Of a stretch of 20,990 bases of DNA, positions 2,856 through 19,891 are shown in pieces. The position numbers were made by a program, and so were the translations under genes. The notes beneath the pieces are model-generated. The model saw nothing but the letters and a program-made list of their open reading frames with translations, searched no databases and had not been told where the DNA came from. The DNA is taken from IMG/VR virus record IMGVR_UViG_2939121850_000005; one strand, given 5' to 3'. The first letter of the stretch is position 1. Every line of letters begins with the position of its first letter. Source of the stretch: a virus (Duplodnaviria; Heunggongvirae; Uroviricota; Caudoviricetes).

Positions 2856-3074
2856 TCAAAGAGAGAGCGCCACCTGTCCTGATTTAATTGGATGCGGCTG
2901 AACCGGATTTGACTCTTTTGGCGTTGCAATCGAACGAACAAAAGTTTCATGGGTAACAAAAGTATGGCTGCAGTTAATGTTCTGGCACTGGTTGTAACGC
3001 TCTTTGGTCAATGAAGATACCTGAAAACTGCTGCGAGTATGGGCGGCACTTCCACACAGTGGGCAAATCATCAT
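2856..3074 (-). CDS. ogr: Ogr/Delta-family zinc-finger late-gene activator
   Basis: 72 aa from the MMICPLCGS start (P2 Ogr is 72 aa); Cys pairs CPLC...CQNINC; GGGGAG about 10 nt upstream; lies at the prophage end as in P2. Confidence 0.8.
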   Translation of the reverse strand: MMICPLCGSAAHTRSSFQVSSLTKERYNQCQNINCSHTFVTHETFVRSIATPKESNPVQPHPIKSGQVALSL

Positions 3075-3255
3075 TTTTCGAGTTCTCCCCATTTTTGCTA
3101 AATTCACAATAATGATACCGCATTATTCCATTTTGCAAACTTAAAAGTTCTCCATTGCGAAGAATCATTCCATTTCGAAATCATCAATCCTCACTTCAAG
3201 CTCCAGACTGGTCGTAAAACCGTTATCCGGGCTGACGGTATGCGTCAGAGTCGTA

Positions 3256-4734
3256 ATGGTCCATTCCGCATCATCTAACGAAGCTGACTTAAACCCTAAC
3301 GTCGCCAACCGCAACAAAGGCCCGCGCCGTCAGCCGGAAAAGAATGTCTTCACCGATGAACAGATTGAGAAGCTGGAAGAAATCTTCCATTCCTCCATGT
3401 TCAACTACCAGCGCCACTGGTGGGAAGCCGGAAAAACCAACCGCATCCGCAACCTGCTGAAGTCACGCCAGATCGGCGCGACCTTTTACTTTGCCCGTGA
3501 AGCCCTGATTGACGCCCTGCTTACCGGACGTAACCAGATTTTCCTTTCCGCCAGTAAGGCACAGGCCCACGTCTTTAAGCAGTACATCATCGACTTCGCC
3601 AAAGAAGTGGATGTGGAACTGAAAGGCGATCCGATGGTGCTTCCTAACGGGGCCACGCTTTACTTCCTCGGCACCAATGCCCGCACGGCCCAGAGTTATC
3701 ACGGCAACCTGTATCTGGATGAATATTTCTGGATACCGAAATTTCAGGAGCTACGCAAAGTGGCTTCCGGTATGGCTATTCACAAGAAATGGCGGCAGAC
3801 CTATTTTTCCACACCATCCAGCCTGACCCACAGTGCTTATCCGTTCTGGTCCGGTGCGCTGTTCAACCGTGGACGCAACAAAGCCGACAAGGTGGACATT
3901 GATCTGTCCCACAGCAATCTGGCCCCCGGCCTGCTGTGCGCTGACGGGCAATACCGCCAGATAGTCACCGTGGAAGATGCGGTGCGCGGCGGCTGTAACC
4001 TGTTCGACCTTGACCAGTTGCGCATGGAATACAGCCCGGACGAATACCAGAACCTGCTGATGTGCGAGTTTGTGGACGATCTCGCGTCCGTGTTCCCGCT
4101 CAGCGAACTACAGGCGTGCATGGTGGACAGTTGGGAAGTCTGGACCGACTTTCATGCACTGGCGCTGCGCCCGTTTGGCTGGCGCGAAGTGTGGATCGGT
4201 TATGACCCGGCAAAAGGTACGCAGAACGGCGACAGCGCCGGATGCGTGGTGGTGGCACCGCCAGCCGTGCCGGGCGGTAAGTTCCGCATTCTTGAGCGTC
4301 ACCAGTGGCGCGGGATGGACTTCCGCGCCCAGGCTGACGCCATCAAAAAACTGACTGAACAGTACAACGTGACATACATCGGTATCGACTCAACCGGCGT
4401 CGGTCACGGGGTTTACGAGAACGTGAAAGCGTTTTTTCCTGCCGTCCGGGAGTTTGTCTACAACCCCAACGTTAAAAATGCCCTGGTACTCAAGGCCTAC
4501 GACATTATCAGTCACCGCCGTCTGGAGTTTGACGCCGGACACACCGACATAGCGCAGTCATTTATGGCAATTCGTCGCGCCACCACCGCCAGCGGCAACC
4601 GCCCGACCTATGAAGCCAGCCGCAGCGAAGAAGCCAGCCATGCCGATCTGGCGTGGGCAACAATGCACGCACTGTTTAACGAGCCGCTGCAGGGCGAGTC
4701 CGCCAATACCAGCAATATTGTGGAGATTTTTTGA
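3256..4734 (+). CDS. P: Terminase ATPase subunit (P2 gpP family), possibly N-terminally truncated
   Basis: 492-aa ORF; Walker-A-like KSRQIGATF and Walker-B-like LYLDEYFW, then a nuclease-like C-terminal half; about 100 aa shorter than P2 gpP as I recall it; stop overlaps the Q start. Confidence 0.75.
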   Translation: MVHSASSNEADLNPNVANRNKGPRRQPEKNVFTDEQIEKLEEIFHSSMFNYQRHWWEAGKTNRIRNLLKSRQIGATFYFAREALIDALLTGRNQIFLSASKAQAHVFKQYIIDFAKEVDVELKGDPMVLPNGATLYFLGTNARTAQSYHGNLYLDEYFWIPKFQELRKVASGMAIHKKWRQTYFSTPSSLTHSAYPFWSGALFNRGRNKADKVDIDLSHSNLAPGLLCADGQYRQIVTVEDAVRGGCNLFDLDQLRMEYSPDEYQNLLMCEFVDDLASVFPLSELQACMVDSWEVWTDFHALALRPFGWREVWIGYDPAKGTQNGDSAGCVVVAPPAVPGGKFRILERHQWRGMDFRAQADAIKKLTEQYNVTYIGIDSTGVGHGVYENVKAFFPAVREFVYNPNVKNALVLKAYDIISHRRLEFDAGHTDIAQSFMAIRRATTASGNRPTYEASRSEEASHADLAWATMHALFNEPLQGESANTSNIVEIF

Positions 4735-5762
4735 TGGGAAAGAGTAAGAAGAACCGCGCTGTGTCGACGAACCAGATTCAGCATAAAAGCCAGACTTCAG
4801 CCGAAGCATTCAGCTTTGGCGATCCCGTTCCTGTTCTGGACCGCCGCGAACTGCTGGACTATGTGGAATGCGTACAGACAGATCGCTGGTATGAGCCGCC
4901 AGTGAGTTTTGACGGACTGGCGCGAACCTTCCGCGCTGCCGTGCATCACAGTTCACCAATTGCGGTGAAATGCAACATTCTGACCAGTACCTACATCCCT
5001 CACCCGCTTCTCAGCCAGCAGGCTTTTTCACGTTTTGTGCAGGACTATCTGGTATTTGGTAACGCTTACCTGGAGAAACGCACGAACCGGTTCGGTGAAG
5101 TTATCGCCCTTGAGCCTGCTCTGGCAAAATACACCCGACGTGGGTTAGACCTGGATACCTACTGGTTTGTGCAATACGGTATGACAACCCAGCCGTATCA
5201 GTTCACGAAAGGCAGCATCTTTCATCTGATGGAACCGGATATCAACCAGGAGATCTACGGCCTGCCCGGTTATCTTTCTGCTATTCCGTCAGCCCTGCTC
5301 AACGAGTCCGCCACGTTGTTCCGCCGTAAGTATTACATTAACGGCAGCCATGCAGGCTTCATCATGTATATGACCGATGCCGCGCAAAACCAAGAGGATG
5401 TGAACAACCTCCGCAACGCGATGAAAAGCGCCAAAGGTCCGGGCAACTTCCGCAACCTGTTTATGTACTCGCCTAACGGCAAAAAGGACGGGCTTCAGAT
5501 TATCCCGTTGTCAGAGGTCGCAGCGAAGGATGAGTTTTTGAATATCAAGAACGTGAGCCGGGACGACATGATGGCGGCACACCGCGTGCCGCCGCAAATG
5601 ATGGGGATAATGCCGAATAATGTTGGGGGTTTTGGGGATGTGGAAAAGGCTAGTAAAGTCTTTGTCCGAAATGAATTAATTCCGTTACAAAAAAGGCTTA
5701 TAGAAATTAATACTTGGCTAAATGAAAAAATCATAGCATTTAATGATTACTCATTAAATTAG
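4734..5762 (+). CDS. Q: Portal protein (P2 gpQ family), 3' end recoded by AT-rich DNA
   Basis: ATG at 4734 overlaps the P stop (TGATG) with GGAGA upstream; 342 aa; base composition falls from about 53% to 27% GC near 5640 within the last 40 codons. Confidence 0.75.
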   Translation: MGKSKKNRAVSTNQIQHKSQTSAEAFSFGDPVPVLDRRELLDYVECVQTDRWYEPPVSFDGLARTFRAAVHHSSPIAVKCNILTSTYIPHPLLSQQAFSRFVQDYLVFGNAYLEKRTNRFGEVIALEPALAKYTRRGLDLDTYWFVQYGMTTQPYQFTKGSIFHLMEPDINQEIYGLPGYLSAIPSALLNESATLFRRKYYINGSHAGFIMYMTDAAQNQEDVNNLRNAMKSAKGPGNFRNLFMYSPNGKKDGLQIIPLSEVAAKDEFLNIKNVSRDDMMAAHRVPPQMMGIMPNNVGGFGDVEKASKVFVRNELIPLQKRLIEINTWLNEKIIAFNDYSLN

Positions 5763-5792: not shown

Positions 5793-7445
5793 TCACAAAA
5801 ATCGCCTTACACGCATTTTATTAATCGCAGATTCATCTCCAATTCTTATCAAGGCATCCCTTGCCTTTTTCCCTATACGATTCATTCTATCAGAACCATT
5901 ACTAAAATTTCCGAATTTAAGCGCCGTAGCTATTATTGAATCACCACCATCAAGAATGACATTTTTAAATAATTGATAGTAGTCATCTACTGAAGCAGCA
6001 TCCAATATTTCCTCATGTCTATCAGACCAACCATTCTGACCTGATAATTTCTTAAGAACATCATATATTGAACCATCAATATTTATAATCTTAGAATAGG
6101 CTTGAATTTTTGACAACAACTCAGTATCTCTTACGGGATGAACATTCACATAAATAGATTGAACATATTCCTTTAGAGCATCGTTACCATAATTAATAAA
6201 CTGTTCAATCAATTCACTCGCCTTAGCATTCTCTCCGAAATCCCTATATAGTCCGACAACATTATCTAAATCACTTGGAGTCACATATTTCATCCCATCA
6301 ACCACCGCTTGATATAGCTTGTCAACAACCTGATTTTGATTGTCATCAAATGAATTATGAAAGAACTGCCATGCCTCAGATAAGGATCCTCGTTTATTAT
6401 CACGCGTAATCTCCTCATTCCTTAGGCTTATTTGTCTTTGGAAACTGCTCTTATCAAGATAGCCATATCTAACCATATCAATAAGAACCTCATCAAGATC
6501 ATTCGTTTTTCTATATCCATATTTAAGCAAGGTATTAAGCCAGACTTTCTCATGGCCTTCTTCCTTGTCATTATAAGTATATATATTCCTCACTCCCCTA
6601 ATATATTCTAGTGATGGCACATCTCCCTCTGGAGAAAATCCGTAATGGCTCCAACAATACAGAGTTAATGAATGCGCAACTTCATTTGAAATTGTCTCAA
6701 CATCACCTATAATATTTGGTGTTAAGGACACGAAAAAACGTTCTATCTTTTTTAAGATTCGAATATTCTTGATACCTAAAGAAATGGAATATTTACTTAA
6801 CAAGTTATAAACATGAGAATCACCTTTATAGGCTATATCTGCGCATTCTTCTGGTGTTGGATTGTAAGTGATATCTCTATCAATGACCTTTTCTTTATAA
6901 GTAGAATAATCCTCCATACTAGCTGTGCCATTGTTAAGCAATAGAACCACCTTACAATCCTTCTGCTCTTTTAATAGAGATACTAGCCCTAAAACATCTT
7001 TAACATCTAAATTTTTGCCACGCCTTTCTAAGTCATCTATTACTACAATCATTTTAGAAACGGTCAGAAATGACATTGCTTCAAGTGTCGTAGAGAAGTT
7101 TTTTACAACAGGAACTTCTTTTAACAAACCTGCTGCTTTTCGAGAAAATGATTCAAAAAGTCCACTTGCGTTTGTTGTTGCTGTCTCCAAATCAGGTTTA
7201 TTTCCAATATATTCCTTTGTAATTGCATTCTCAAAAATAGAATACTTTAAAGAATCTAGTGAATTTATACCAAAAAGAGAGACATAACTATATCTATTAA
7301 ATGCAACCTTATCTTTATTATCTTTTAGGAACGTATTCCAAGTATAGGTTTTACCAATTCCCCATTCACCCTGTATAGCCATTACTTCTGGTTCTGTAGA
7401 TGAGATAAAATCTGACAACTGTTCTTTGATAAACTCTAAGGACAT
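5793..7445 (-). CDS. KAP-family P-loop NTPase (candidate defence cargo)
   Basis: 551 aa from the ATG at 7445 (GGAGAA upstream; the six-frame track extends it to 7637); Walker A GEWGIGKT (nt 7347..7370) and KAP-type VVIDDLERR motif; about 33% GC. Confidence 0.7.
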   Translation of the reverse strand: MSLEFIKEQLSDFISSTEPEVMAIQGEWGIGKTYTWNTFLKDNKDKVAFNRYSYVSLFGINSLDSLKYSIFENAITKEYIGNKPDLETATTNASGLFESFSRKAAGLLKEVPVVKNFSTTLEAMSFLTVSKMIVVIDDLERRGKNLDVKDVLGLVSLLKEQKDCKVVLLLNNGTASMEDYSTYKEKVIDRDITYNPTPEECADIAYKGDSHVYNLLSKYSISLGIKNIRILKKIERFFVSLTPNIIGDVETISNEVAHSLTLYCWSHYGFSPEGDVPSLEYIRGVRNIYTYNDKEEGHEKVWLNTLLKYGYRKTNDLDEVLIDMVRYGYLDKSSFQRQISLRNEEITRDNKRGSLSEAWQFFHNSFDDNQNQVVDKLYQAVVDGMKYVTPSDLDNVVGLYRDFGENAKASELIEQFINYGNDALKEYVQSIYVNVHPVRDTELLSKIQAYSKIINIDGSIYDVLKKLSGQNGWSDRHEEILDAASVDDYYQLFKNVILDGGDSIIATALKFGNFSNGSDRMNRIGKKARDALIRIGDESAINKMRVRRFL

Positions 7446-7573
7446 GTGTTTTCTCCTAGAAAGATAGCCCCGTATTATAACCCTAGAATTATAAAAGTAA
7501 TGAGCGCGCGCTCGTATCCCCGCCACGCCTGCCCGCTTTATGTAGTGTTTTTCATGCACCTGCATGACATAGG

Positions 7574-7599
7574 CAAAAGCCCGCCAGTTATGACGGGCC
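7574..7599 (-). terminator. Intrinsic terminator downstream of the 883-aa gene
   Basis: Stem gcccg / cgggc with a 10-nt loop at 7579..7598, followed on the minus strand by CTTTTG. Confidence 0.45.
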
Positions 7600-7735
7600 T
7601 CAGCATAAAAGATCCCTAAACGATCATGCGTTTTCATGCAGCATAGTTATGCAGGACTATCTATACATCGACAATCTCAGCTTGACCTCATCAGTCGACA
7701 TCAATCTATATGTCGAGTAACTTGACAGGAACCAT

Positions 7736-10387
7736 TCATTGATCCACAAGAGATAAACTAATCTTTTGCTCAACAGCGTTGAAATCGTTCTCTATACGCA
7801 CCCATAGTACTTTACCTTTGGAATACTCATTCATACGGTTAAAACCTGCAGGCAGTTTTGATTTATGTATTAACCCTGTAATTTTTCCTGTAAAGTTAAC
7901 AAAAACACCATATCTATGATCGCAATTCCGTACAGTACCTTCTAATATATCACCTGACTGATACCTAGCTTCGAACTCTGCCCATTCAGGATCGCGTATC
8001 TTTTCCGCAAATGACTTAACAGCATCAATTGCAGGTTGGATATCAGTTAGCCCGTGATATTCATCTCCAGAAATAAATTCGCCTGAAAAACTTGCTATCG
8101 TTTCACGTTGATTTACAAGAAAATCAACTAACTCCTTAGCATTAGCACTAACCATTTCTTTATTATACTGATTTTGAACTGACCCCATCCTTTCAGAGAC
8201 TCTTCTGGCAATTTGCTCAGTAGGGAAAAGAGTATCTTCTGCTAACGCGGCTAGATAGCTAATATTTGAGAGCATATCCAAATGCACAAACCCAGCCGAG
8301 GATAATCTTAGTAAGTCTTCATCAGTTATTCCAGTCTCTCTAAAATCCTCTGAAACTAAACATTGCCCCTGAAGTAAATAATCGACCTCACGAGTTATAA
8401 CCTTTGGAGAAAAACCAAACTTGACTAATCCGTTTTTTAACGCAAACAAAGGAAAGTATCCTTTAAGTCCAGTTGGACCACTTACCCCAAAATTATTATA
8501 GAACCATTTCAAAATTGCAAACCTAGTAAAATGATTAGCCCTCTCATCATCTTTTTCCGTCGAAAATATATTTTTAAGGTATGAGTTATCGCTATCATAA
8601 AATCGACGATTTAATCGTAATAACACTCTGGTCACAATATGTAAAGGAAGCGCATAGCGTCCTTCACTTTGCCTTATTTTTAAAAACTCACCTTCAGTAA
8701 TATGCCCACTAGTGCAGAACTCCAAGAAAATTTCCAAAGCCCTTCGTATATTTCTTCCTGAAAGACCAACAATCATCCTTCTTATTTGTGCATCATGTAC
8801 AAAAATAGAGTTTGCGATTGATGTTAAATAATATGAACGTTCGTCCTTGCTATATTCAACATTAAAGCCGTTAGGAAGTGAATATGAAAGAGTATTGCTA
8901 GCACTAGTTTTTGTCATTTCTTTAAGAACAAGCTGCACTCTTGAATGAAGAACATAATTAAACAACGGTGGTTCAATACGGAAAACCATATCTTTTAAAG
9001 CGGTGTCAAGAGGAGGACGATCTCTATAATTATCATAAGTTTCTTCTCTCAAGGGAAGAATTATTAGTGATCTAAACTCATTTTGGAGCCATTGAGCAGC
9101 CTGAAACATTAGCAACTGTTCAGACAAAGTTCTTTTATCACAATTATCAAGAACTATTACAACTAATTTACCGCGCTCTGTCCCACAATACCGAGTATAG
9201 GCAAGTGCAGTTTCATGTAAATCTGACTTACATTCCCTAATAATTTTAAACAATTCCTTATTATATTCATCCCCAGAAAGTAATTGCCCCTCCCCCTTAT
9301 TAAACTTATTTATCTCAACAGAATAGAGTTTTTTTAAATTATCCAACAAATCAAAATCAATATCTGGGTAAGCTAACTTACATTGTTGAATTATTTTCCC
9401 TCTAAGCCAATCATAAACTTCCCCTGAAGAAACCGGGGATTCATTCATATTAAAACGTAACCAAAGAGTGGTTTTAATAATATCATTTGGGAGCGCGACT
9501 TCTTTTAAATGATCAATGAAAGTTGTTTTTCCTGAACCAACACTGCCAACAATCAATAAAATTTTATTTTCAAGCGGAGATCGCCCTCTAAATTTTTCAA
9601 TTATTTCTTTGGGATTATCAGTATCTTCAATTAATTTAGAATCACTATTGCTTACTGGTTGAGCAGCCCTGATAATTTTATCTATTGGCTGGGTATAGCG
9701 GTCCCTGCGCTTAGATGAAATATACCCTTCACGAGCGATAAACTGTCGATCATTCAGTGTATTTGGATTAAATATATTTCCATACTCTGATATAAGTGTT
9801 GCACCAAAACTATTATGCCCCACCTCTTCGTTCTGAGCTGCCTTCCCTCCCATCATTCTCCTAGGCTTCCAGAATTTTCTAGGTTTTGATTTAGCTATGA
9901 ATTCCTCAGATAATTTCGAGAGAGCTGTAAACGAAAATTCCTCTAAAAAATTTGCACAATTTTTATCAACAGGTGATATCTCATTTAATCGGTAACTACC
10001 CTGGTTATTATCCCATTCCCCCGCAAGCCACTCATATCCATCAGTAGCTATGATTTTGGTAAGAGGATTCATACCACTCTCATATTTTGCATTCAACTCT
10101 AGCGCATATAATCGTGCTTCCTGAAAAGCGCTATCTAAATCCTCTCCAGGAGTTTTTGCTTCTACTAGTAATACAGGAACACCATTTATAATTACAAGAT
10201 AGTCTGGATAATATATTTTTTTGGTACTACCTTTACCTATCTCTAAGCTTTTAATATTTCTTTTAGTGAGTATATACTCTTTATTTATGCCAAGCCCATC
10301 AACAGATTTCTTAGTCAGAAACGGATAAATTATTTTTTGTTCGATATCACTTTCTGTTTCCTTTACTTTATTTATCTTACTACTCAT
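7736..10387 (-). CDS. Multidomain protein: restriction-endonuclease-like PD-(D/E)xK motif, P-loop NTPase and C-terminal S1/OB domain (candidate defence cargo)
   Basis: 883 aa; YPDYLVIINGVPVLLVEAK (aa 60-78); Walker A GSVGSGKTT (nt 9521..9547); Walker B VVIVLDNCD (aa 409-417); S1-like signature GDILEGTVRNCDHRYGVFVNFTGKITGLIHKSKL...GKVLWVRIEN in the last 75 aa; AAGGA RBS; about 33% GC. Confidence 0.75.
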   Translation of the reverse strand: MSSKINKVKETESDIEQKIIYPFLTKKSVDGLGINKEYILTKRNIKSLEIGKGSTKKIYYPDYLVIINGVPVLLVEAKTPGEDLDSAFQEARLYALELNAKYESGMNPLTKIIATDGYEWLAGEWDNNQGSYRLNEISPVDKNCANFLEEFSFTALSKLSEEFIAKSKPRKFWKPRRMMGGKAAQNEEVGHNSFGATLISEYGNIFNPNTLNDRQFIAREGYISSKRRDRYTQPIDKIIRAAQPVSNSDSKLIEDTDNPKEIIEKFRGRSPLENKILLIVGSVGSGKTTFIDHLKEVALPNDIIKTTLWLRFNMNESPVSSGEVYDWLRGKIIQQCKLAYPDIDFDLLDNLKKLYSVEINKFNKGEGQLLSGDEYNKELFKIIRECKSDLHETALAYTRYCGTERGKLVVIVLDNCDKRTLSEQLLMFQAAQWLQNEFRSLIILPLREETYDNYRDRPPLDTALKDMVFRIEPPLFNYVLHSRVQLVLKEMTKTSASNTLSYSLPNGFNVEYSKDERSYYLTSIANSIFVHDAQIRRMIVGLSGRNIRRALEIFLEFCTSGHITEGEFLKIRQSEGRYALPLHIVTRVLLRLNRRFYDSDNSYLKNIFSTEKDDERANHFTRFAILKWFYNNFGVSGPTGLKGYFPLFALKNGLVKFGFSPKVITREVDYLLQGQCLVSEDFRETGITDEDLLRLSSAGFVHLDMLSNISYLAALAEDTLFPTEQIARRVSERMGSVQNQYNKEMVSANAKELVDFLVNQRETIASFSGEFISGDEYHGLTDIQPAIDAVKSFAEKIRDPEWAEFEARYQSGDILEGTVRNCDHRYGVFVNFTGKITGLIHKSKLPAGFNRMNEYSKGKVLWVRIENDFNAVEQKISLSLVDQ

Positions 10388-10896: not shown

Positions 10897-11085
10897 TTAA
10901 CTGGAAACTTCCGTTGACCGGCTGTATTCATGGCTGCGAATTTTCGCCATCAGCTCGTCTGTCAGTTCGGACACCCACTGGATAGCCAGCCGCTTTTCTT
11001 CGTCGCTGCACTCACTAGCCGCTACAAGCTTGATAAAAAAATCAATACGCTGAAGCTTCAATGACTCCAAAAGATAGTCCTGCAT
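10897..11085 (-). CDS. Small hypothetical protein (62 aa) downstream of a LexA box
   Basis: ATG at 11085 preceded by AGGAGG with a 4-nt spacer (MQDYLLESLKLQRIDFF...); identity not recognised. Confidence 0.45.
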   Translation of the reverse strand: MQDYLLESLKLQRIDFFIKLVAASECSDEEKRLAIQWVSELTDELMAKIRSHEYSRSTEVSS

Positions 11086-11133
11086 CTTCCCTCCTATCAT
11101 TACACGGATACACAAAAACTGTATATACACCCA

Positions 11134-11149
11134 CTGTTTATATAAACAG
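11134..11149. promoter_or_regulatory. LexA (SOS) box CTGTTTATATAAACAG
   Basis: Perfect palindromic CTGT-N8-ACAG about 50 nt upstream of the small ORF on the minus strand; TATAAT directly adjacent on the plus strand; a weaker CTGTATATAC half-box lies at 11119. Confidence 0.5.
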
Positions 11150-11243
11150 TATAATAGGAACAGAAAAATGTAAAACTGTTTTTTGTCAGTTAATTGGATG
11201 TACTGATGTCGGTCAATAAAGCACAAAATGTTAAACAGCAGCC

Positions 11244-13637
11244 TTAGTACCATTGACGCCATTTGTCATCTTCCTGCAGCCTCTGGTTACGGTAAAAAAT
11301 ACGTAAACCGGCACCGGATGGAATGCTGCCGCCACGCAGAAGCAAATCAATCTCAGATGCACTACCTTCAAACCCCCTGGTTGTCAGTTCTGCCTCAAGC
11401 TGCAGGCGCTGCTGCTCCAAAATACTCTGTATGTATGCTTTTTTCCGCTTCGGTTTTACCAGTCTCAACCTGGCTGTCAGCTCCCGCCGTTCCTTCTGGC
11501 CCATGTTGTGGAGATATTCCTGCAGCTCCTTCTCATCCATGGTTTTAATATCGGGTAAATCACCCCCTGATTTGTTCAGATTTTCAACAGGGGGACAGTT
11601 ATTGCCACGAGTCCAAGGGGCGCAAGCGCCCTGGTCGGCTGCCGCCTCCTGAACGTCAACGGCTTTACGAACCATTTTCCACTTCACTGCATGAGTGCAG
11701 ATCTTGCCCTCTGCAATGGGTGACCAGATGCCATAAATACGAATGCCATGATCGCCATAGGCGGTCGGCTCTTCGTTGATTTCATAAGCGGTTCTGATGA
11801 GGTGATATTTACGGGGAACCAGTACGCCGCCCTGCTTCATGATGTAGGTGGCAAAACAACCAGCATCAGCAGCAGCCAGAATGGCATCAAGACGCGGGTT
11901 ATCCAGTACCGGCGCACCTGCTTTTTTGTCACCCTGTTGCCTTGCCGCCTGACCAGCCAGCAAGCGAAGTTCACGGTAAGCCTGACGCCCCGGAATACCA
12001 AAGAAGCGGAATTGCTGAACACGATGCAGAGACGCCCAGGCATTCACGTATTCAGCGTTATCACGCAGAGATTTACCCGTTTCCTTGCTGATCTCGCCAG
12101 CCAGACCACGACCGTCAATGTTCTTACTGATATATTTCGCGATGTAGCTTGTCGGCGTTCCTTTGCGCGGGTTAATCAACTCAGACTTAAAGCGCGGCCC
12201 AGTGTTATTGCCCAGCTCCTCGCGGTCTTCACGGATGGCAAACTTACGCAGTAATGCAGTGATGGCACGGCGGTCTTTTTTGCGCATGAAACACAACAGG
12301 TGCCAGTGAACTGTGCCATCATGATGCGGCTCAGCCACCCGCACGCCATACCAGCGCAACCCGGCTTTGTGCATCGCCTTACGAAATGCAGCAAACATAC
12401 CGACCAGATAATCGCTGCTTTGTCTTACCGTCGCGTTTGTCCAGGTCGGGTTTGGTCTGCCGTTATTTAGCGTGGAATGGAAACGCGACGGACAGGTGAT
12501 AGTGTAGAAAACGGCGCAGTCACCGCGCATTTCCGCGATAAGCTCCAGACCTTTAACACAGGCCATCATCTCATTGCGGCGATGCGCAGGGTTGCTGCTG
12601 CTGGCGTTTACCACATCCTCCATGTCCAGCGTGTCGCCGTCTTCGTTCACCAGTTCATGAGAACGGAAAAACTCCAGCGACTTACGACGCTGCTCACGTT
12701 TATGCATCACGGCTTCATAGCTGACATAAGGAGATGCTTTTTTGCTGACCAGGCAAACAGCGCGCAACTGCTCTTCCCGCCATTCGCAACGCATCTTCCA
12801 TAATTTCCGATACCACCAGTCGGCGCACAACATACGCGCCAGCGAACCCGGAATGAGTTCATAGGGCACGGGTTTACGGCGGTTTCTTTTCCGACGGAGT
12901 TGCTCAAACGCAGGTGGGATGACATCCAGACGCAGGGTTTCCGCTGCCACCTTTTCCCATGTCTTGCGGATTTCTTCTGGCTTAACGTCATCGGTGGCAT
13001 ACAAATCACCACAAGCTGCATCAAGGCACATACTCATATGCGCAGCTACCAGGGTGGAAAGGCGTTTCACCTGATCCTGACTCATTTCAGGCAGGATCAG
13101 CAGGCCGTCCAGCCCTTCATGGCTTGCCATAAAGCGAAAAGATGCAGATAGCTGACTGTCGCGTACATGCTCCAGTCGTTCCAGACATGGCTTAATCGTC
13201 TCACGTAAATAGCGGGAATAAGCCTTTGGCCTGCCCAGGCTGCTGAAGTATTCAATACGTTGCATCAGCGGCTTGCTGATATGGGAAGGCTGGGCGTTGA
13301 CGTCCGCCAGAATGACCATGTCTGAATTAAAACGCTGCTGCTCATGCGCCAGCTTTGCCCGGCTAATGAGCTTATCCTGCTCCATTTCGCGCTGGACAGG
13401 ATCACGTGATTCATTAAAGAAATAACGCTCCCAGACCTGATCACTCAGTGCCTCGCGGCGCAACTGTTCCTGCTCGTTATCGGCAGCGTACAGAGTGATC
13501 AGGTTTGAAAGCGTAGAAACCGGCGCAACTTCCGCCGGGTCCAGATAAGGGTTAATGGCCTTTTTCGGGCTGTTCCATGAGAATGCTGCGGCAGCCTCGT
13601 TAAAGCCGCAGCAGTTGTTCATATCGGCATGACTCAT
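11244..13637 (-). CDS. A: Replication initiation endonuclease (P2 gpA family, HUH rolling-circle Rep)
   Basis: 797 aa; HUH motif [10 protein letters not shown] and double-tyrosine motif [13 protein letters not shown]; GGAG RBS; ATGA overlap with the upstream dam stop. Confidence 0.8.
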
Positions 13638-15778: not shown

Positions 15779-16288
15779 TCACAGCAAACCGAATGAAGCA
15801 CCAAGGCCAGTCATGGTATCAACTGCACTCGCCATCGCAGGATTAGCCTGTAAACGGGCTTGCAATGAAACAGCAGCCAGCGCCATCAGTCGTGTTACAG
15901 AGTTAATGCTGCTGATAGCATCACGACGACCTGCACTGGTTTTTACATCGCCAGATACCGCACCTGCAGCAACACGCCCGATCTCTGCGGTTGCACTCAT
16001 GACGTAATGCGGTAGTTTCTCTTTTGCCACCTCATTAATCGGAACACATGGCAGACAATGAATCTGTGCCAGAAAACCATCTACCAGCGTTGAATCTTCA
16101 GTCAGATCGGTAAGCAACCAAATTTCTGGTGCGGTTAATAAATGAGGTTGAGCTGGGTTCAGTTTGTTCCGCAGAATCTGCACATTCATGCCTGCACGTT
16201 CTGCCAGTTGCACCAGATTGTGGCGCAGTGCGAATGCACGACAGGCTTCATCAAAATGTGGATGTTTGGAAACTTGGTAATCAAACAT
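15779..16288 (-). CDS. CII-like HTH transcriptional regulator (186 CII-like by position and size)
   Basis: 169 aa from MFDYQ with GAGGTG RBS; HTH-like [16 protein letters not shown]; directly downstream of the Apl/Cox-like gene. Confidence 0.55.
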
Positions 16289-16320
16289 GGTCGACACCTC
16301 TGATGTATCCCAAAATGGAA

Positions 16321-16542
16321 CTAGTTGAATACAACATTGCAATCAGTAAGTGCATCAACGGTAAGAGCAGCAAGGTTGATCATTACCTTTTCTCTTTTCT
16401 TGTCTTTCCGAAGGCGATGCCGAGGGATGCGACCGTCAGCCAGCATATCGTTAATTGTGTCGATTGAAAGACCAGTAAGTTCGCTATAACGCTCAATTGT
16501 GACATGTGGCGTATTCAGGGTTATTGAAATGTTAGGGGTCAT
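16321..16542 (-). CDS. Apl/Cox-like excisionase-type small DNA-binding regulator
   Basis: 73 aa; HTH-like [26 protein letters not shown]; first gene of the lytic-direction operon, divergent from the CI-like gene; AGGAG upstream. Confidence 0.5.
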
Positions 16543-16630
16543 GATGCAACATCTCCTATTGGCTTGTGGTGAGTCAGTTTTAATCGTGGCTTTAACTTCA
16601 CATTTCGGAGAATAGGATCACAAATCGGTT
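16543..16630. promoter_or_regulatory. Immunity switch region (divergent promoter/operator space)
   Basis: 88-bp gap between the divergent Apl-like and CI-like genes; contains 7-bp inverted repeats TCCTATT / AATAGGA about 50 bp apart. Confidence 0.4.
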
Positions 16631-17566
16631 ATGTCAACACATGAAATCACATTTCGCCATGTGGACGAAAAAAAGAAATCCTTAATCATGCAGAATCGCG
16701 GAGGGCAATCGGTTATAGATCGGATACTGAAAGCCTATGGTTTTTCTTCCCGACAAGCATTCTGTAATCACCTAGGTATATCGCAAAGTACAATGGCGAA
16801 CAGGTATGCCCGTGACACTTTCCCTGCTGATTGGGTTGTTATCTGTAGCATGGAGACTGGAGTGCCGGTCGAGTGGTTGGCATTTGGCACTGATACCGAG
16901 AAGGGAAGCATTACAAATAATGCAGAAAAAAGTCACAACAATTGTGACAGCAAGCATCAACATCTCAATAGAGAACAAGACATCCAAAATGAGAACTCTT
17001 TTACTATTAACCAAGGTGGAAAAGCAGCAATAGAGCGAATCGTTTTGGCTTATGGATTTAAGACAAGACAAGCTTTAGCTGATCATATTGGTGTATCAAA
17101 AAGTACATTAGCCAATCGTTACATGAGAGATACCTTTCCTGCTGACTGGATTATTCAATGCTCACTGGAAACCGGTGCTTCATTAACATGGCTAACCACT
17201 GGTAACGGGGCAATGTTTGAAAAGCCTCGAAACGATACTATCACTATCCCATATCATAAAATAATTGATGGATCTCTTGCTCAAGAAACCTTCTTGACTT
17301 TTGACTCTAAGTTGTTAGAAGGAACCTTTCTGCAACCTTTAGCAGTATTCATTGATGAGGAAATATATATTGTAGAATCAAAATTTAATGAAGTTACTGA
17401 TGGCAAGTGGCTTGTGAATATTGAAGGGAAAATAAGTATCAAAGATTTGACTCGCATACCCGTTGGTATGGTTAAAGTTGTAGGCACTAACGCAAGTTTT
17501 GAATGCTTACTTACTGACATTATCGTTTTGGCAAAATGTAAAAGAGTTTTTACTAAAAATGTATAA
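16631..17566 (+). CDS. CI-like repressor with tandemly duplicated HTH domain (186 CI-type)
   Basis: 311 aa; two about 64-aa repeats (aa 24-87 and 129-192, about 60% identical) each with an HTH-like core (ILKAYGFSSRQAFCNHLGISQSTMANRY / IVLAYGFKTRQALADHIGVSKSTLANRY); about 37% GC; start codon uncertain (no clear SD). Confidence 0.6.
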   Translation: MSTHEITFRHVDEKKKSLIMQNRGGQSVIDRILKAYGFSSRQAFCNHLGISQSTMANRYARDTFPADWVVICSMETGVPVEWLAFGTDTEKGSITNNAEKSHNNCDSKHQHLNREQDIQNENSFTINQGGKAAIERIVLAYGFKTRQALADHIGVSKSTLANRYMRDTFPADWIIQCSLETGASLTWLTTGNGAMFEKPRNDTITIPYHKIIDGSLAQETFLTFDSKLLEGTFLQPLAVFIDEEIYIVESKFNEVTDGKWLVNIEGKISIKDLTRIPVGMVKVVGTNASFECLLTDIIVLAKCKRVFTKNV

Positions 17567-17577
17567 AGAGAAACATC

Positions 17578-18522
17578 ATGACTGAACCAACCAATAAAGA
17601 TAGCGAAATAAAAAAACACCTATTAGAATTTCTTGATTCACAGTCTGAAAATATAGCAAAACACTTCTACTCTCATATAAAAGACTTAATAGAAGCAGGA
17701 GAGCTTTCTGAAGCTCATAATAACCTAGCGCTAATTGAAAAATACATAACTAGGCCACCGATGGATGAAGAACCCAATATAAATGAAAATAAAGCCAATA
17801 AAAGAAAAAATGTAAAATCACTTGAACCTAATAATTATGTAGAACATATAATACAATTAGAAGAACGAAACAGCATATTAACTCTACAGTTAGAGCATTA
17901 TACTCAGGATCTTAATAGAAAAAACGCAATAATCGAAAACAACGTAAAACAAATTAATTCATTGATTAGTGAAAATAAGGAACTCCGTAGCCAAGTACAG
18001 CAACAAAGAATCGATGATAAAATCCCCACCTATGTTAACGATGTTAAATCAGATCTTGGTAGTGATGACAAACATTTTATATTGATGTCTATTATCTGGT
18101 CTATTGCAGGGGTATTTTTTGGCTTCCTTGCAGTAGTATCTGCTTTTTTTACATTATACATGAACTTAGATTTAAAAAATCTCACTAACCTTCAGTTAAT
18201 ATATATCTTCACGCGAGGATTAGTTGGAATCGCCATTCTTTCATGGCTATCATATATCTGCCTTAGTAACTCAAAAAAGTACACACATGAATCGATCAGG
18301 CGAAAAGATCGTCGACATGCTTTGATGTTTGGTCAAGTTTTTTTGCAGATATACGGTTCTACAGCAACTAAAGAGGATGCAATAGAAGTCTTTAAGGATT
18401 GGAATATTTCAGGTGACTCTGCATTTTCAGGTCAGACAGAGCAACCACCGAGTTTTGCGTCATTTTTGAATACAATCAAAGACAAAGTTAAAGTAACTGG
18501 AAGTGATAAAGAAACAGATTAA
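17578..18522 (+). CDS. Coiled-coil / two-TM membrane protein of unknown function (candidate exclusion or abortive-infection moron)
   Basis: 314 aa starting 11 nt after the CI-like stop; charged coiled-coil N-terminal half and two hydrophobic helices (FILMSIIWSIAGVFFGFLAVVSAFF, GLVGIAILSWLSYICL); strongly AT-rich. Confidence 0.6.
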   Translation: MTEPTNKDSEIKKHLLEFLDSQSENIAKHFYSHIKDLIEAGELSEAHNNLALIEKYITRPPMDEEPNINENKANKRKNVKSLEPNNYVEHIIQLEERNSILTLQLEHYTQDLNRKNAIIENNVKQINSLISENKELRSQVQQQRIDDKIPTYVNDVKSDLGSDDKHFILMSIIWSIAGVFFGFLAVVSAFFTLYMNLDLKNLTNLQLIYIFTRGLVGIAILSWLSYICLSNSKKYTHESIRRKDRRHALMFGQVFLQIYGSTATKEDAIEVFKDWNISGDSAFSGQTEQPPSFASFLNTIKDKVKVTGSDKETD

Positions 18523-18575: not shown

Positions 18576-19891
18576 GGGTCTTCCCTTGTTGTGGTGGCTG
18601 AAGGCATGATAATGGTGTATTTAATCGCCAGAGGTCACCGCCATGGACGAAAAGTCCCTCTACGCTCATATTCTCAACCTGTCCGATCCGTGGCAGGTAA
18701 AGTCCCTTTCTCTCGATGAAAATGCCGGTTCTGTTACTGTCACTATTGAGATCGCTGAAAACACCCGGCTAGCCTGTCCGACCTGCGGTAAATCCTGTTC
18801 TGTTCACGATCACCGTCATCGTAAATGGCGCCATCTTGATACCTGCCAGTTCACCACTATTGTTGAAGCCGATGTTCCACGAATTATGTGTCCGGAGCAT
18901 GGCTGCCTGACGTTGCCTGTTCCGTGGGCTGGCCCCGGAAGCCGGTATACGTTGCTATTCGAATCGTTCGTTCTCTCATGGCTGAAAATCAGCACCGTTG
19001 ATGCTGTCAGGAAGCAACTTAAGCTCAGTTGGAATGCGGTTGACGGCATTATGACCCGGGCAGTTAAGCGAGGTCTTGCCCGGATAAAAAAGCCATTATC
19101 CGCCCGTCATATGAATGTGGATGAGGTCGCCTTTAAAAAAGGACATCGTTACATAACGGTGATCTCCGATCGCGATGGTCGGGCGCTGGCCTTAACGGAT
19201 GATCGCGGCACAGAGAGTCTTGCCGGCTATCTTCGCACGCTCACTGATGGGCAGTTGCTGGCTATCAAAACGCTCTCAATGGACATGAACGCGGGCTATA
19301 TAAGAGCAGCGCGTATCTACTTACCCAGTGCGGTTGAGAAAATCGCCTTTGACCGCTTCCATGTGGCGAAGCAACTGGGCGAGGTAGTTGATAAAACCCG
19401 TCAGAATGAACATCCGCACCTCCCTGTTGAAAGCCGACACCAGGCAAAAGGAACCCGCTTCCTGTGGCAGTACAGCGATAAGTGGATGACCGAATCCCGG
19501 CAGGAAAAGCTGATGTGGCTGCGTGCACAGATGAAGCTGACGAGCCAGTGCTGGGCGCTGAAAGAGCTGGCAAAGGATATCTGGAACAGGCCATGGAGCG
19601 AGGAAAGACGGAGTGACTGGCAGAGATGGTTGGCGCTGGCGGCTAACAGTGACGTTCCCATGATGAAAAATGCCGCGAAAACGATAGGAAAAAGGCTGTA
19701 CGGGATCCTGAATGCGATGCGACACAGTGTCTCAAACGGAAATGCGGAGGCACTTAACAGCAAGATCAGGCTGCTGAGGATAAAAGCCAGGGGATACCGA
19801 AACCGGGAGCGCTTTAAACTGGGGGTGATGTTCCACTACGGAAAGCTGAATATGGCGTTCTGAGCCTTCCCACCATGATCGGGGAAGACCC
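18576..19891 (+). mobile_element. ISL3-family insertion sequence (1316 bp)
   Basis: Imperfect terminal inverted repeats beginning GGGTCTTCCC at both ends (left 18576..18604; right 19864..19891, reverse complement); one transposase ORF; flanked by an 8-bp direct repeat. Confidence 0.75.
18643..19863 (+). CDS. ISL3-family transposase
   Basis: 406 aa; N-terminal Cys/His zinc-finger (CPTCGKSC...CPEHGC), DDE-type core, C-terminal SNGNAEALNSKIRLLRIKARGYRNRERF typical of ISL3 transposases; GAGGT RBS. Confidence 0.75.
   Translation: MDEKSLYAHILNLSDPWQVKSLSLDENAGSVTVTIEIAENTRLACPTCGKSCSVHDHRHRKWRHLDTCQFTTIVEADVPRIMCPEHGCLTLPVPWAGPGSRYTLLFESFVLSWLKISTVDAVRKQLKLSWNAVDGIMTRAVKRGLARIKKPLSARHMNVDEVAFKKGHRYITVISDRDGRALALTDDRGTESLAGYLRTLTDGQLLAIKTLSMDMNAGYIRAARIYLPSAVEKIAFDRFHVAKQLGEVVDKTRQNEHPHLPVESRHQAKGTRFLWQYSDKWMTESRQEKLMWLRAQMKLTSQCWALKELAKDIWNRPWSEERRSDWQRWLALAANSDVPMMKNAAKTIGKRLYGILNAMRHSVSNGNAEALNSKIRLLRIKARGYRNRERFKLGVMFHYGKLNMAF

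Follow-up and report, generated by a model that had tools for sequence, protein, structure and literature searches.

A phage 186-type CI repressor with two non-identical helix-turn-helix domains in a defective E. coli prophage

The CI repressor of phage 186 serves as a model of how a protein wheel that wraps DNA controls genes cooperatively. Repressors of this type assemble into dimers and into a 14-mer wheel by which DNA is wrapped or looped, and they act at three operators of the early lytic promoter pR, at the sites FL and FR about 300 bp to either side, and at sites of the promoter pB. Their prophages are induced in the SOS response through the LexA-controlled antirepressor Tum and not through self-cleavage of the repressor. 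In 186, one CI oligomer (wheel) occupies FL or FR along with the pR operators (PMC3675496), and the helix-turn-helix (HTH) domain has two distinct recognition sequences, according to the title of Shearwin et al. (2002, J Biol Chem 277:3186), which PMC3675496 cites. Two CI sites are annotated at pB of 186. P2 C, the immunity repressor of a related phage group, binds direct repeats (PMC2995052). A review of P2-like regulatory regions noted longer linkers and C-terminal domains, and it did not note a duplication. Neither in this review nor in a full-text literature search did we find a description of a 186-type CI with two HTH domains.

We analyzed a stretch of 20,990 nucleotides (referred to below as the window) from the IMG/VR virus record IMGVR_UViG_2939121850_000005. 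It contains a prophage of E. coli located between ybjL and rcdA, in which ogr, the portal gene, two cargo genes, A, dam, fil, cII, an apl/cox-like gene, cI, a 314-aa open reading frame (ORF), an ISL3-family insertion sequence (IS) and int are kept. The cI gene (positions 16631 to 17566, + strand) lies between int and the divergent apl-cII operon, and cargo and the IS element intervene between cI and int. The apl/cox-like excisionase-repressor gene is found at 16321 to 16542 (− strand; phrog_575, E = 7e-31), and cII of the CP76 family at 15779 to 16288 (− strand; PF06892, E = 4e-42). This gene order, int-(cargo)-cI/apl-cII-fil-...-A, matches that of 186, and it is the same in the intact phage 4LV2017. 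In NZ_CP033401, cI is annotated as "phage repressor protein CI," and two-HTH relatives are named likewise.

The cI ORF encodes 311 aa. An alternative start chosen by PGAP, Met20 at 16688, would give a protein of 292 aa; both HTH domains (or heads) are retained either way. Pfam identified two stretches of Phage_CI_repr (PF07022, E = 3.9e-58) and, at residues 206 to 304, Phage_CI_C (PF16452, E = 1.6e-26). The product can thus be divided into an N-terminal extension (codons 1 to 22, 16631 to 16696), a first HTH domain, D1 (residues 23 to 90, 16697 to 16900), a disordered polar linker (residues 91 to 127, 16901 to 17011), a second HTH domain, D2 (residues 128 to 195, 17012 to 17215), and a 186-type CI C-terminal (oligomerization) domain (17216 to 17563), all on the + strand. 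Residues 24 to 87 and 129 to 192 were identical at 37 of 64 positions (58%) in an ungapped alignment, with a maximum of 15/64 in 100,000 sequence shuffles, and the halves compared by BLASTP gave an E value of 2e-33 and 49% identity across 85 aa. The repeats are separated by 41 polar residues (88 to 128), and the C-terminal part has 119 aa. A first-pass annotation of this DNA had proposed a CI-like repressor with two HTH domains, built of repeats at about 60% identity, a 41-aa polar linker and a C-terminal domain of about 120 aa; the self-alignment agreed with this layout, and the CI assignment was confirmed by the two PF07022 matches and the 186-type C-terminal domain.

The HTH fold was also present in a structure prediction. 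A monomer model was made with AlphaFold2, using 44 two-HTH homologues as the input alignment. It contained five-helix bundles at residues 25 to 85 and 130 to 190, a tether with a pLDDT below 50 at residues 89 to 126, and a β-rich C-terminal domain with a pLDDT of about 90; a helix at residues 13 to 20 was predicted with modest confidence. The pTM was 0.40, so that the model is uninformative on the mutual arrangement of the domains. The best PDB matches found with Foldseek were 2fjr_A (E = 1e-17) and, for the C-terminal domain, 2fkd_A (TM score, 0.92; rmsd, 1.6 Å). In a sequence alignment, the whole of 186 CI (2fjr_A) matched residues 133 to 308 (E = 2e-28), with D2 corresponding to residues 10 to 80 of 2fjr_A. 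The recognition helices of D1 (SQSTMANRYAR) and D2 (SKSTLANRYMR) differed at three positions only (Q/K, M/L, and A/M). The cI product is therefore a 186-type CI, made of D2 and the C-terminal domain, plus a non-identical N-terminal HTH domain, D1, on a disordered tether of about 38 residues. It shares with coliphage 186 CI (PDB 2FJR and 2FKD) the PF07022 HTH family and the PF16452 oligomerization fold, whereas 186 CI has 192 aa and lacks the extra N-terminal HTH and the tether.

Other repressor types could be set aside. The P2 C repressor is a small (about 100 aa), single-domain protein without the 186-type C-terminal domain, whereas the window protein has 311 aa and three domains; no search gave a match between the window protein and the P2 C family, all matches being to the 186 CI family, and membership in the P2 C family was therefore ruled out. 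A self-cleaving repressor of the LexA or lambda CI type was rejected because Peptidase_S24 (PF00717) was absent from the cI product in the Pfam search; similarity of its fold to LexA C-terminal domains was remote only. Tandem HTH domains are also found in the prophage-associated Wmk protein of Wolbachia (PMC12889037), but these are of the XRE type and not PF07022, and Wmk has no oligomerization domain and is not an immunity repressor. Searches with PADLOC and NCBIfam assigned neither the repressor nor the ORF downstream of it to a specific family. The first-pass annotation had also suggested a repurposed sensor. A role as a sensor or defense regulator was dismissed, since no ligand-type domain was found in the product and the gene stands in the usual place of cI, within early regions that are otherwise of the standard 186-like kind; neither the window nor the early regions of the examined relatives showed a further cI, and none is annotated in 4LV2017.

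A recent tandem duplication was ruled out as the origin of the two heads. Only 21 of 64 third codon positions (33%) were shared by the repeats, and the heads had different nearest relatives. In 47 of 47 two-HTH proteins, the heads were less similar to each other than each was to the head of a single-HTH CI, and the single-HTH lineage was a different one for each head, with mean identities of 76% between D1 and its single-HTH relative, 83% between D2 and its single-HTH relative, and 57% between D1 and D2. For the window protein, D1 was 79% identical to a single-HTH CI of about 207 aa and D2 was 87% identical to P0040, an approximately 199-aa CI, compared with 54% between D1 and D2. D1 and the 22-residue N-terminal extension resembled the ~207-aa type (e.g., P0057 and L044). 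D2 and the C-terminal domain together were 67% identical to P0040, and the end of the linker was homologous to the N terminus of the ~199-aa-type CI. The CIs of the ~199-aa type (KP12 and P0040) and of the ~207-aa type (P0057 and L044) have one head, whereas the window CI has both; each type contributes one module, and the ~207-aa type also contributes the pR operators (see below). The mosaic was visible at the DNA level as well. According to blastn, positions 16213 to 16590 were 96% identical to KP12, a Klebsiella phage of the ~199-aa type, positions 16596 to 16860 matched ~207-aa-type prophages at 71 to 72%, and positions 17013 to 17202 matched the HTH of KP12 at 74%, which places a breakpoint at 16590 to 16596. 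The phage backbone around the fused cI is of the ~199-aa type. The low third-codon identity, the different nearest relatives and the DNA mosaic indicate a fusion of heterologous modules, or else a very old duplication, and not the internal tandem duplication in situ that had been assumed in the first-pass annotation. A module consisting of the pR operators, the N-terminal extension and D1 appears to have come from the ~207-aa lineage and to have been fused in frame before a ~199-aa-type CI. Such a mosaic origin means that recombination can move a cassette of operators plus reading head while the resident repressor stays, and immunity groups that are new or broadened may arise through the transfer of this cassette between phages.

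The pairing of heads varied across the family. At least four D1 subtypes were paired with a rather uniform D2. A second enterobacterial two-HTH group had a D1 clade of its own, and in a Shewanella two-HTH group, D1 and D2 paired with each other. Judged from these two relationships, there are at least three independent origins of tandem heads in the family. That they arose repeatedly, in one case together with a C-terminal domain of the S24 peptidase type, speaks for a selectable function.

The region upstream of cI was then compared among phages of the different CI types. A consensus scan (10/12) predicted the early lytic promoter pR at 16609 to 16637 on the − strand, directed towards apl and faced by cI; the first-pass annotation had likewise named a divergent promoter at 16543 to 16630. 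Its −35 hexamer, TTGACA (16637 to 16632), and its −10 hexamer, TATTCT (16614 to 16609), were both conserved in relatives, and the cI start codon lies within ATGTCAA, the reverse complement of TTGACAT. At pR we found three candidate operators, O1 to O3, as same-strand repeats of TCACWnnnCGS on the + strand (16598 to 16608, 16618 to 16628, and 16647 to 16657). This motif had 5 matches in the window, versus 2.1 expected, and 3 of them were within 60 bp. The arrangement resembles that of 186 in that cI faces apl-cII, three repeats lie over pR, and candidate distal sites are found at FR/FL-like distances; it differs in that 186 has A-type inverted repeats at pR. The TCACWnnnCGS repeats occurred at the same offsets (−33, −13, and +16) in phages with a single-HTH, D1-like CI (L044, L067, and L061). 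In two other two-HTH subgroups, too, the pR repeats resembled those of phages with D1-similar single heads (L086 with L007; L092 with L041). Single-HTH phages of the ~199-aa type have TCCCCAAATGGGA-like inverted repeats at pR, and these operators were absent from pR of the two-HTH phages. A search for TCCCNNNNNGGGA with at most one mismatch near cI in two-HTH phages gave chance-level matches only, apart from a shared FR-like site. Since D1-type repeats are present at pR both in phages with D1-like single heads and in two-HTH phages, D1 and the candidate pR operators travel together.

Candidate sites of a second class were located away from pR. The FR-like site TCCCAAAATGGAA (16308 to 16320, + strand), at the apl/cII junction and thus at the position of FR in 186, matched the ~199-aa-type pR operator TCCCCAAATGGGA at 11 of 13 positions. 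A second, statistically weak candidate, ATCCAAAATGAGAAC (16982 to 16996, + strand), is inside cI at the junction between the linker and D2, about 366 bp from pR like FL in 186. It is positionally homologous to the operator-like repeat TACCCAAGTGAGATC in the first cI codons of the ~199-aa type; its conservation could be explained by protein-level constraint on the arm preceding D2. The exact motif CAAAATGGAA occurred twice in the window, at 16311 to 16320 (the FR position of 186) and at 3126 to 3135 (the pB position of 186). The latter copy is over the putative −35 element of the promoter region of the late activator gene ogr/B (3075 to 3164, − strand), the equivalent of pB. The expectation that CAAAATGGAA sites would be found only in two-HTH and ~199-aa-type phages was contradicted: the FR-like and pB motifs were conserved in phages of every CI type, including those with single-HTH, D1-like CIs, and the ~207-aa-like phage ST13-OXA48phi12.1 also carries them. 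The CAAAATGGAA motifs therefore give no means of telling D1 targets from D2 targets. The FR-like and pB motifs may not serve CI at all; pE or cII signals are located there in 186. The FR-like, pB and internal sites are therefore no more than candidate targets of D2.

The explanation that we favor, with a probability of roughly 50%, is that cI encodes the immunity repressor at work in a defective 186-like prophage, and that its fused heads would be assigned to different sites, D1 to pR and D2 to a second site class. In this scheme, D2 and the C-terminal domain would build a 186-like oligomer, and D1, on its flexible tether, would read the pR operators that arrived with it. Pairs of D1, held by the C-terminal-domain dimer or wheel, would bind the three TCACWnnnCGS operators overlapping pR, and D1 would thereby set the immunity specificity. 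D2 would keep the specificity of its single-HTH relatives for TCCCnAAATGGGA-like inverted repeats; its site class would comprise the FR-like site at the apl/cII junction and might extend to the internal cI site and to the promoter of ogr. In addition or instead, D2 could act on superinfecting relatives of the ~199-aa type, at their pR operators. The two sequence classes read by a single HTH in 186 would thus be split between two dedicated heads of one oligomer. The specificities of D1 and D2 may overlap, because their recognition helices differ so little. We regard it only as a tentative, rather doubtful proposition that the heads differ in specificity on one oligomeric wheel, with D1 giving the phage its own immunity at pR and D2 serving both a second operator class and a second immunity group. 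If it were true, natural repressors of dual specificity, able to evade immunity as well as to impose it, would have been created repeatedly by recombination. A subunit with two different heads also offers a direct handle on how head number, tether length and specificity contribute to wrapping, looping and immunity.

Engineered single-chain 434 repressors bind one operator with the two heads of one chain. D1 and D2 of one chain might sit side by side on one asymmetric operator, with TCAC contacted by one head and the TCGG/TCGC half by the other, so that the operator-binding unit would be the chain and not the dimer. The pR repeats are indeed non-palindromic, and a flexible tether of about 38 aa would permit such a placement. 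A monomeric mycobacteriophage repressor also contacts an asymmetric site with two domains of one chain (PMC9283540); such repressors differ from the window CI in having unrelated folds, in being monomeric, and in having a second domain that is not a repeated HTH. We consider the side-by-side arrangement unlikely, however, because the single-HTH, D1-like CIs of L044, L067 and L061 have the same kind of asymmetric repeats at the same offsets, which makes a second head unneeded, and because the nearest relatives of D2 use a different operator type.

According to another explanation, the phage's own genome holds no essential target for D2, which is kept for repressing superinfecting ~199-aa-type relatives, whose own repressors the phage would escape by means of its swapped pR operators. 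Several observations fit this explanation. In apl, cII and the ogr promoter, the backbone shares about 96% identity with KP12, D2 has the same recognition helix as the ~199-aa-type single head to which it is 87% identical, and D1 is variable in the two-HTH proteins while D2 is uniform. However, the argument is purely inferential, and a core function would account equally well or better for the strong purifying selection that D2 shows in widely divergent hosts and in independent two-HTH lineages (see below). We rate this explanation as rather improbable; it is compatible with the favored one, and repression of superinfecting relatives could be an extra benefit.

To quantify the selection, pN and pS were compared for pairs of two-HTH alleles, with synonymous sites near saturation. 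In D1, pN was 0.10 to 0.14 versus a pS of 0.7 to 0.86, and in D2, pN was 0.14 to 0.26 versus a pS of 0.55 to 0.94. In the linker, which differs among homologues in both length and sequence, pN was about equal to pS (~0.6). Judged by these ratios, purifying selection is strong on both heads and not on the linker. In 44 homologues, residues of the recognition helix were invariant or nearly so in both heads; the conserved ones were S51, S53, T54 and R58 in D1 and S156, S158, T159, R163 and Y164 in D2. Either head could in principle be a passenger, D2 as a structural spacer for the folding or packing of the C-terminal domain, or D1 as a non-functional leftover of recombination. This is quite improbable, since pN was far below pS in both heads, the recognition-helix residues were invariant and the adjoining linker drifted freely, and since D1 covaried with the pR operators. 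Codons 1 to 22 behaved differently, with a pS of only 0.17 to 0.38 in several pairs, versus 0.7 to 0.9 in the HTH domains. This low synonymous divergence suggests a constraint at the DNA level, in keeping with the overlap of these codons with the −35 hexamer of pR and with the third repeat, O3. Selection on the cI copy of this particular prophage may be relaxed because the morphogenesis genes are lost, yet an allele 98.7% identical to it is present in Klebsiella phage records.

Many complete E. coli genomes, assembled independently, carried the region at 100% identity, and the full-length cI allele was present in 115 of 5,426 complete E. coli genomes. An assembly artefact, which the first-pass annotation had named as a possibility, or two adjacent genes read as one, is extremely improbable given that the same allele is found in more than 100 independent complete genomes and in phage records, that about 45 divergent clusters likewise keep an open frame, and that no conserved internal Met precedes D2. 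In a search of 5.8 billion proteins, 48 of the best 120 matches were two-HTH clusters (290 to 330 aa), or about 45 clusters at 90% identity, with about 1,800 member sequences, alongside 73 single-HTH clusters of 187 to 209 aa. The two-HTH clusters originated from Escherichia, Klebsiella, Salmonella, Enterobacter, Citrobacter, Edwardsiella and Kosakonia. When D2 alone was searched exhaustively against 1.84 billion representatives, just 224 proteins reached an E value of ≤0.001. Two complete heads were present in 21 of 156 analyzed family sequences (listed representatives at 50% identity plus a few references); distant two-HTH members came from Hafnia, Pantoea, Citrobacter, Edwardsiella, Enterobacter and Shewanella, and all of those tested had two PF07022 domains and PF16452, with one exception, which has an S24 peptidase C-terminal domain. 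The intact phage 4LV2017 (L089) encodes a two-HTH CI of 313 aa. The architecture is therefore not unusual, as it had first been called; the two-HTH CI is a real and widespread member of the 186 CI family that has recurred in evolution, a common mosaic variant of a well-known repressor that is apparently unstudied rather than rare. It is frequent in the prophages of clinical E. coli and Klebsiella.

Two members of the family deviate in their C-terminal part. The metagenomic protein P0243 (330 aa) is the exception mentioned above and carries two Phage_CI_repr heads followed by a LexA-like Peptidase_S24 domain, a layout implying that tandem heads are not bound to the 186-type oligomerization domain. 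In L004 (Dryocola sp. BD586), a two-HTH allele of 229 aa (4001 to 4690) has both heads and no C-terminal domain; this could represent a pseudogene or a natural truncation.

Several other features of the prophage were noted. In the interval from 2856 to 5762, the entire tail, capsid and lysis block is missing. The ogr/B gene (2856 to 3074, − strand) is followed by a small fragment of gene D (approximately 3165 to 3296, − strand), which directly joins an N-terminally truncated gene for the terminase large subunit (ending at 4734, + strand); the portal gene follows at 4731 to 5762. Between the portal gene and the replication region, a known variable hotspot of P2-like phages, there are two cargo genes (5793 to 10387, − strand). 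One encodes a P-loop NTPase of 614 aa with a match to PDC-S49, a PADLOC candidate family (E = 7e-28), and the other encodes an 883-aa protein with an annotated HsdR N-terminal domain; the pair is probably an anti-phage system. In 4LV2017, an annotated RNA-directed DNA polymerase beside a hypothetical gene (10905 to 12888) occupies the hotspot after gene A, possibly a retron-type defense system.

Just after the replication gene A, a perfect palindromic LexA box, CTGTTTATATAAACAG, was found at 11134 to 11149, about 50 bp upstream of a conserved 62-aa ORF (10897 to 11085, − strand; phrog_698). The box and the ORF are in the position of the LexA-controlled tum operon of 186. The 62-aa product had no similarity to 186 Tum and was rejected as a Tum antirepressor; neither a Tum homologue nor a DinI-like gene was found in the window. 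The ORF may encode a different SOS-controlled antirepressor.

The 314-aa ORF between cI and int (17578 to 18522, + strand) belongs to phrog_2628, and its Pfam matches to membrane-protein families were weak and below threshold. In relatives (L084, L085, L086, L092, L093, L001, and L091), the contents of the slot between cI and int differed and included GmrSD_N with HEPN_RiboL-PSP, a 558-aa "chromosome segregation ATPase," and several unknowns. This slot looks like a second variable cargo hotspot, and its genes are probably cotranscribed with cI in lysogens. An ISL3-family element with an ISKox3-like transposase of 406 aa (18643 to 19863, + strand) is inserted between the cargo ORF and int, and it may uncouple int from the lysogenic transcript.
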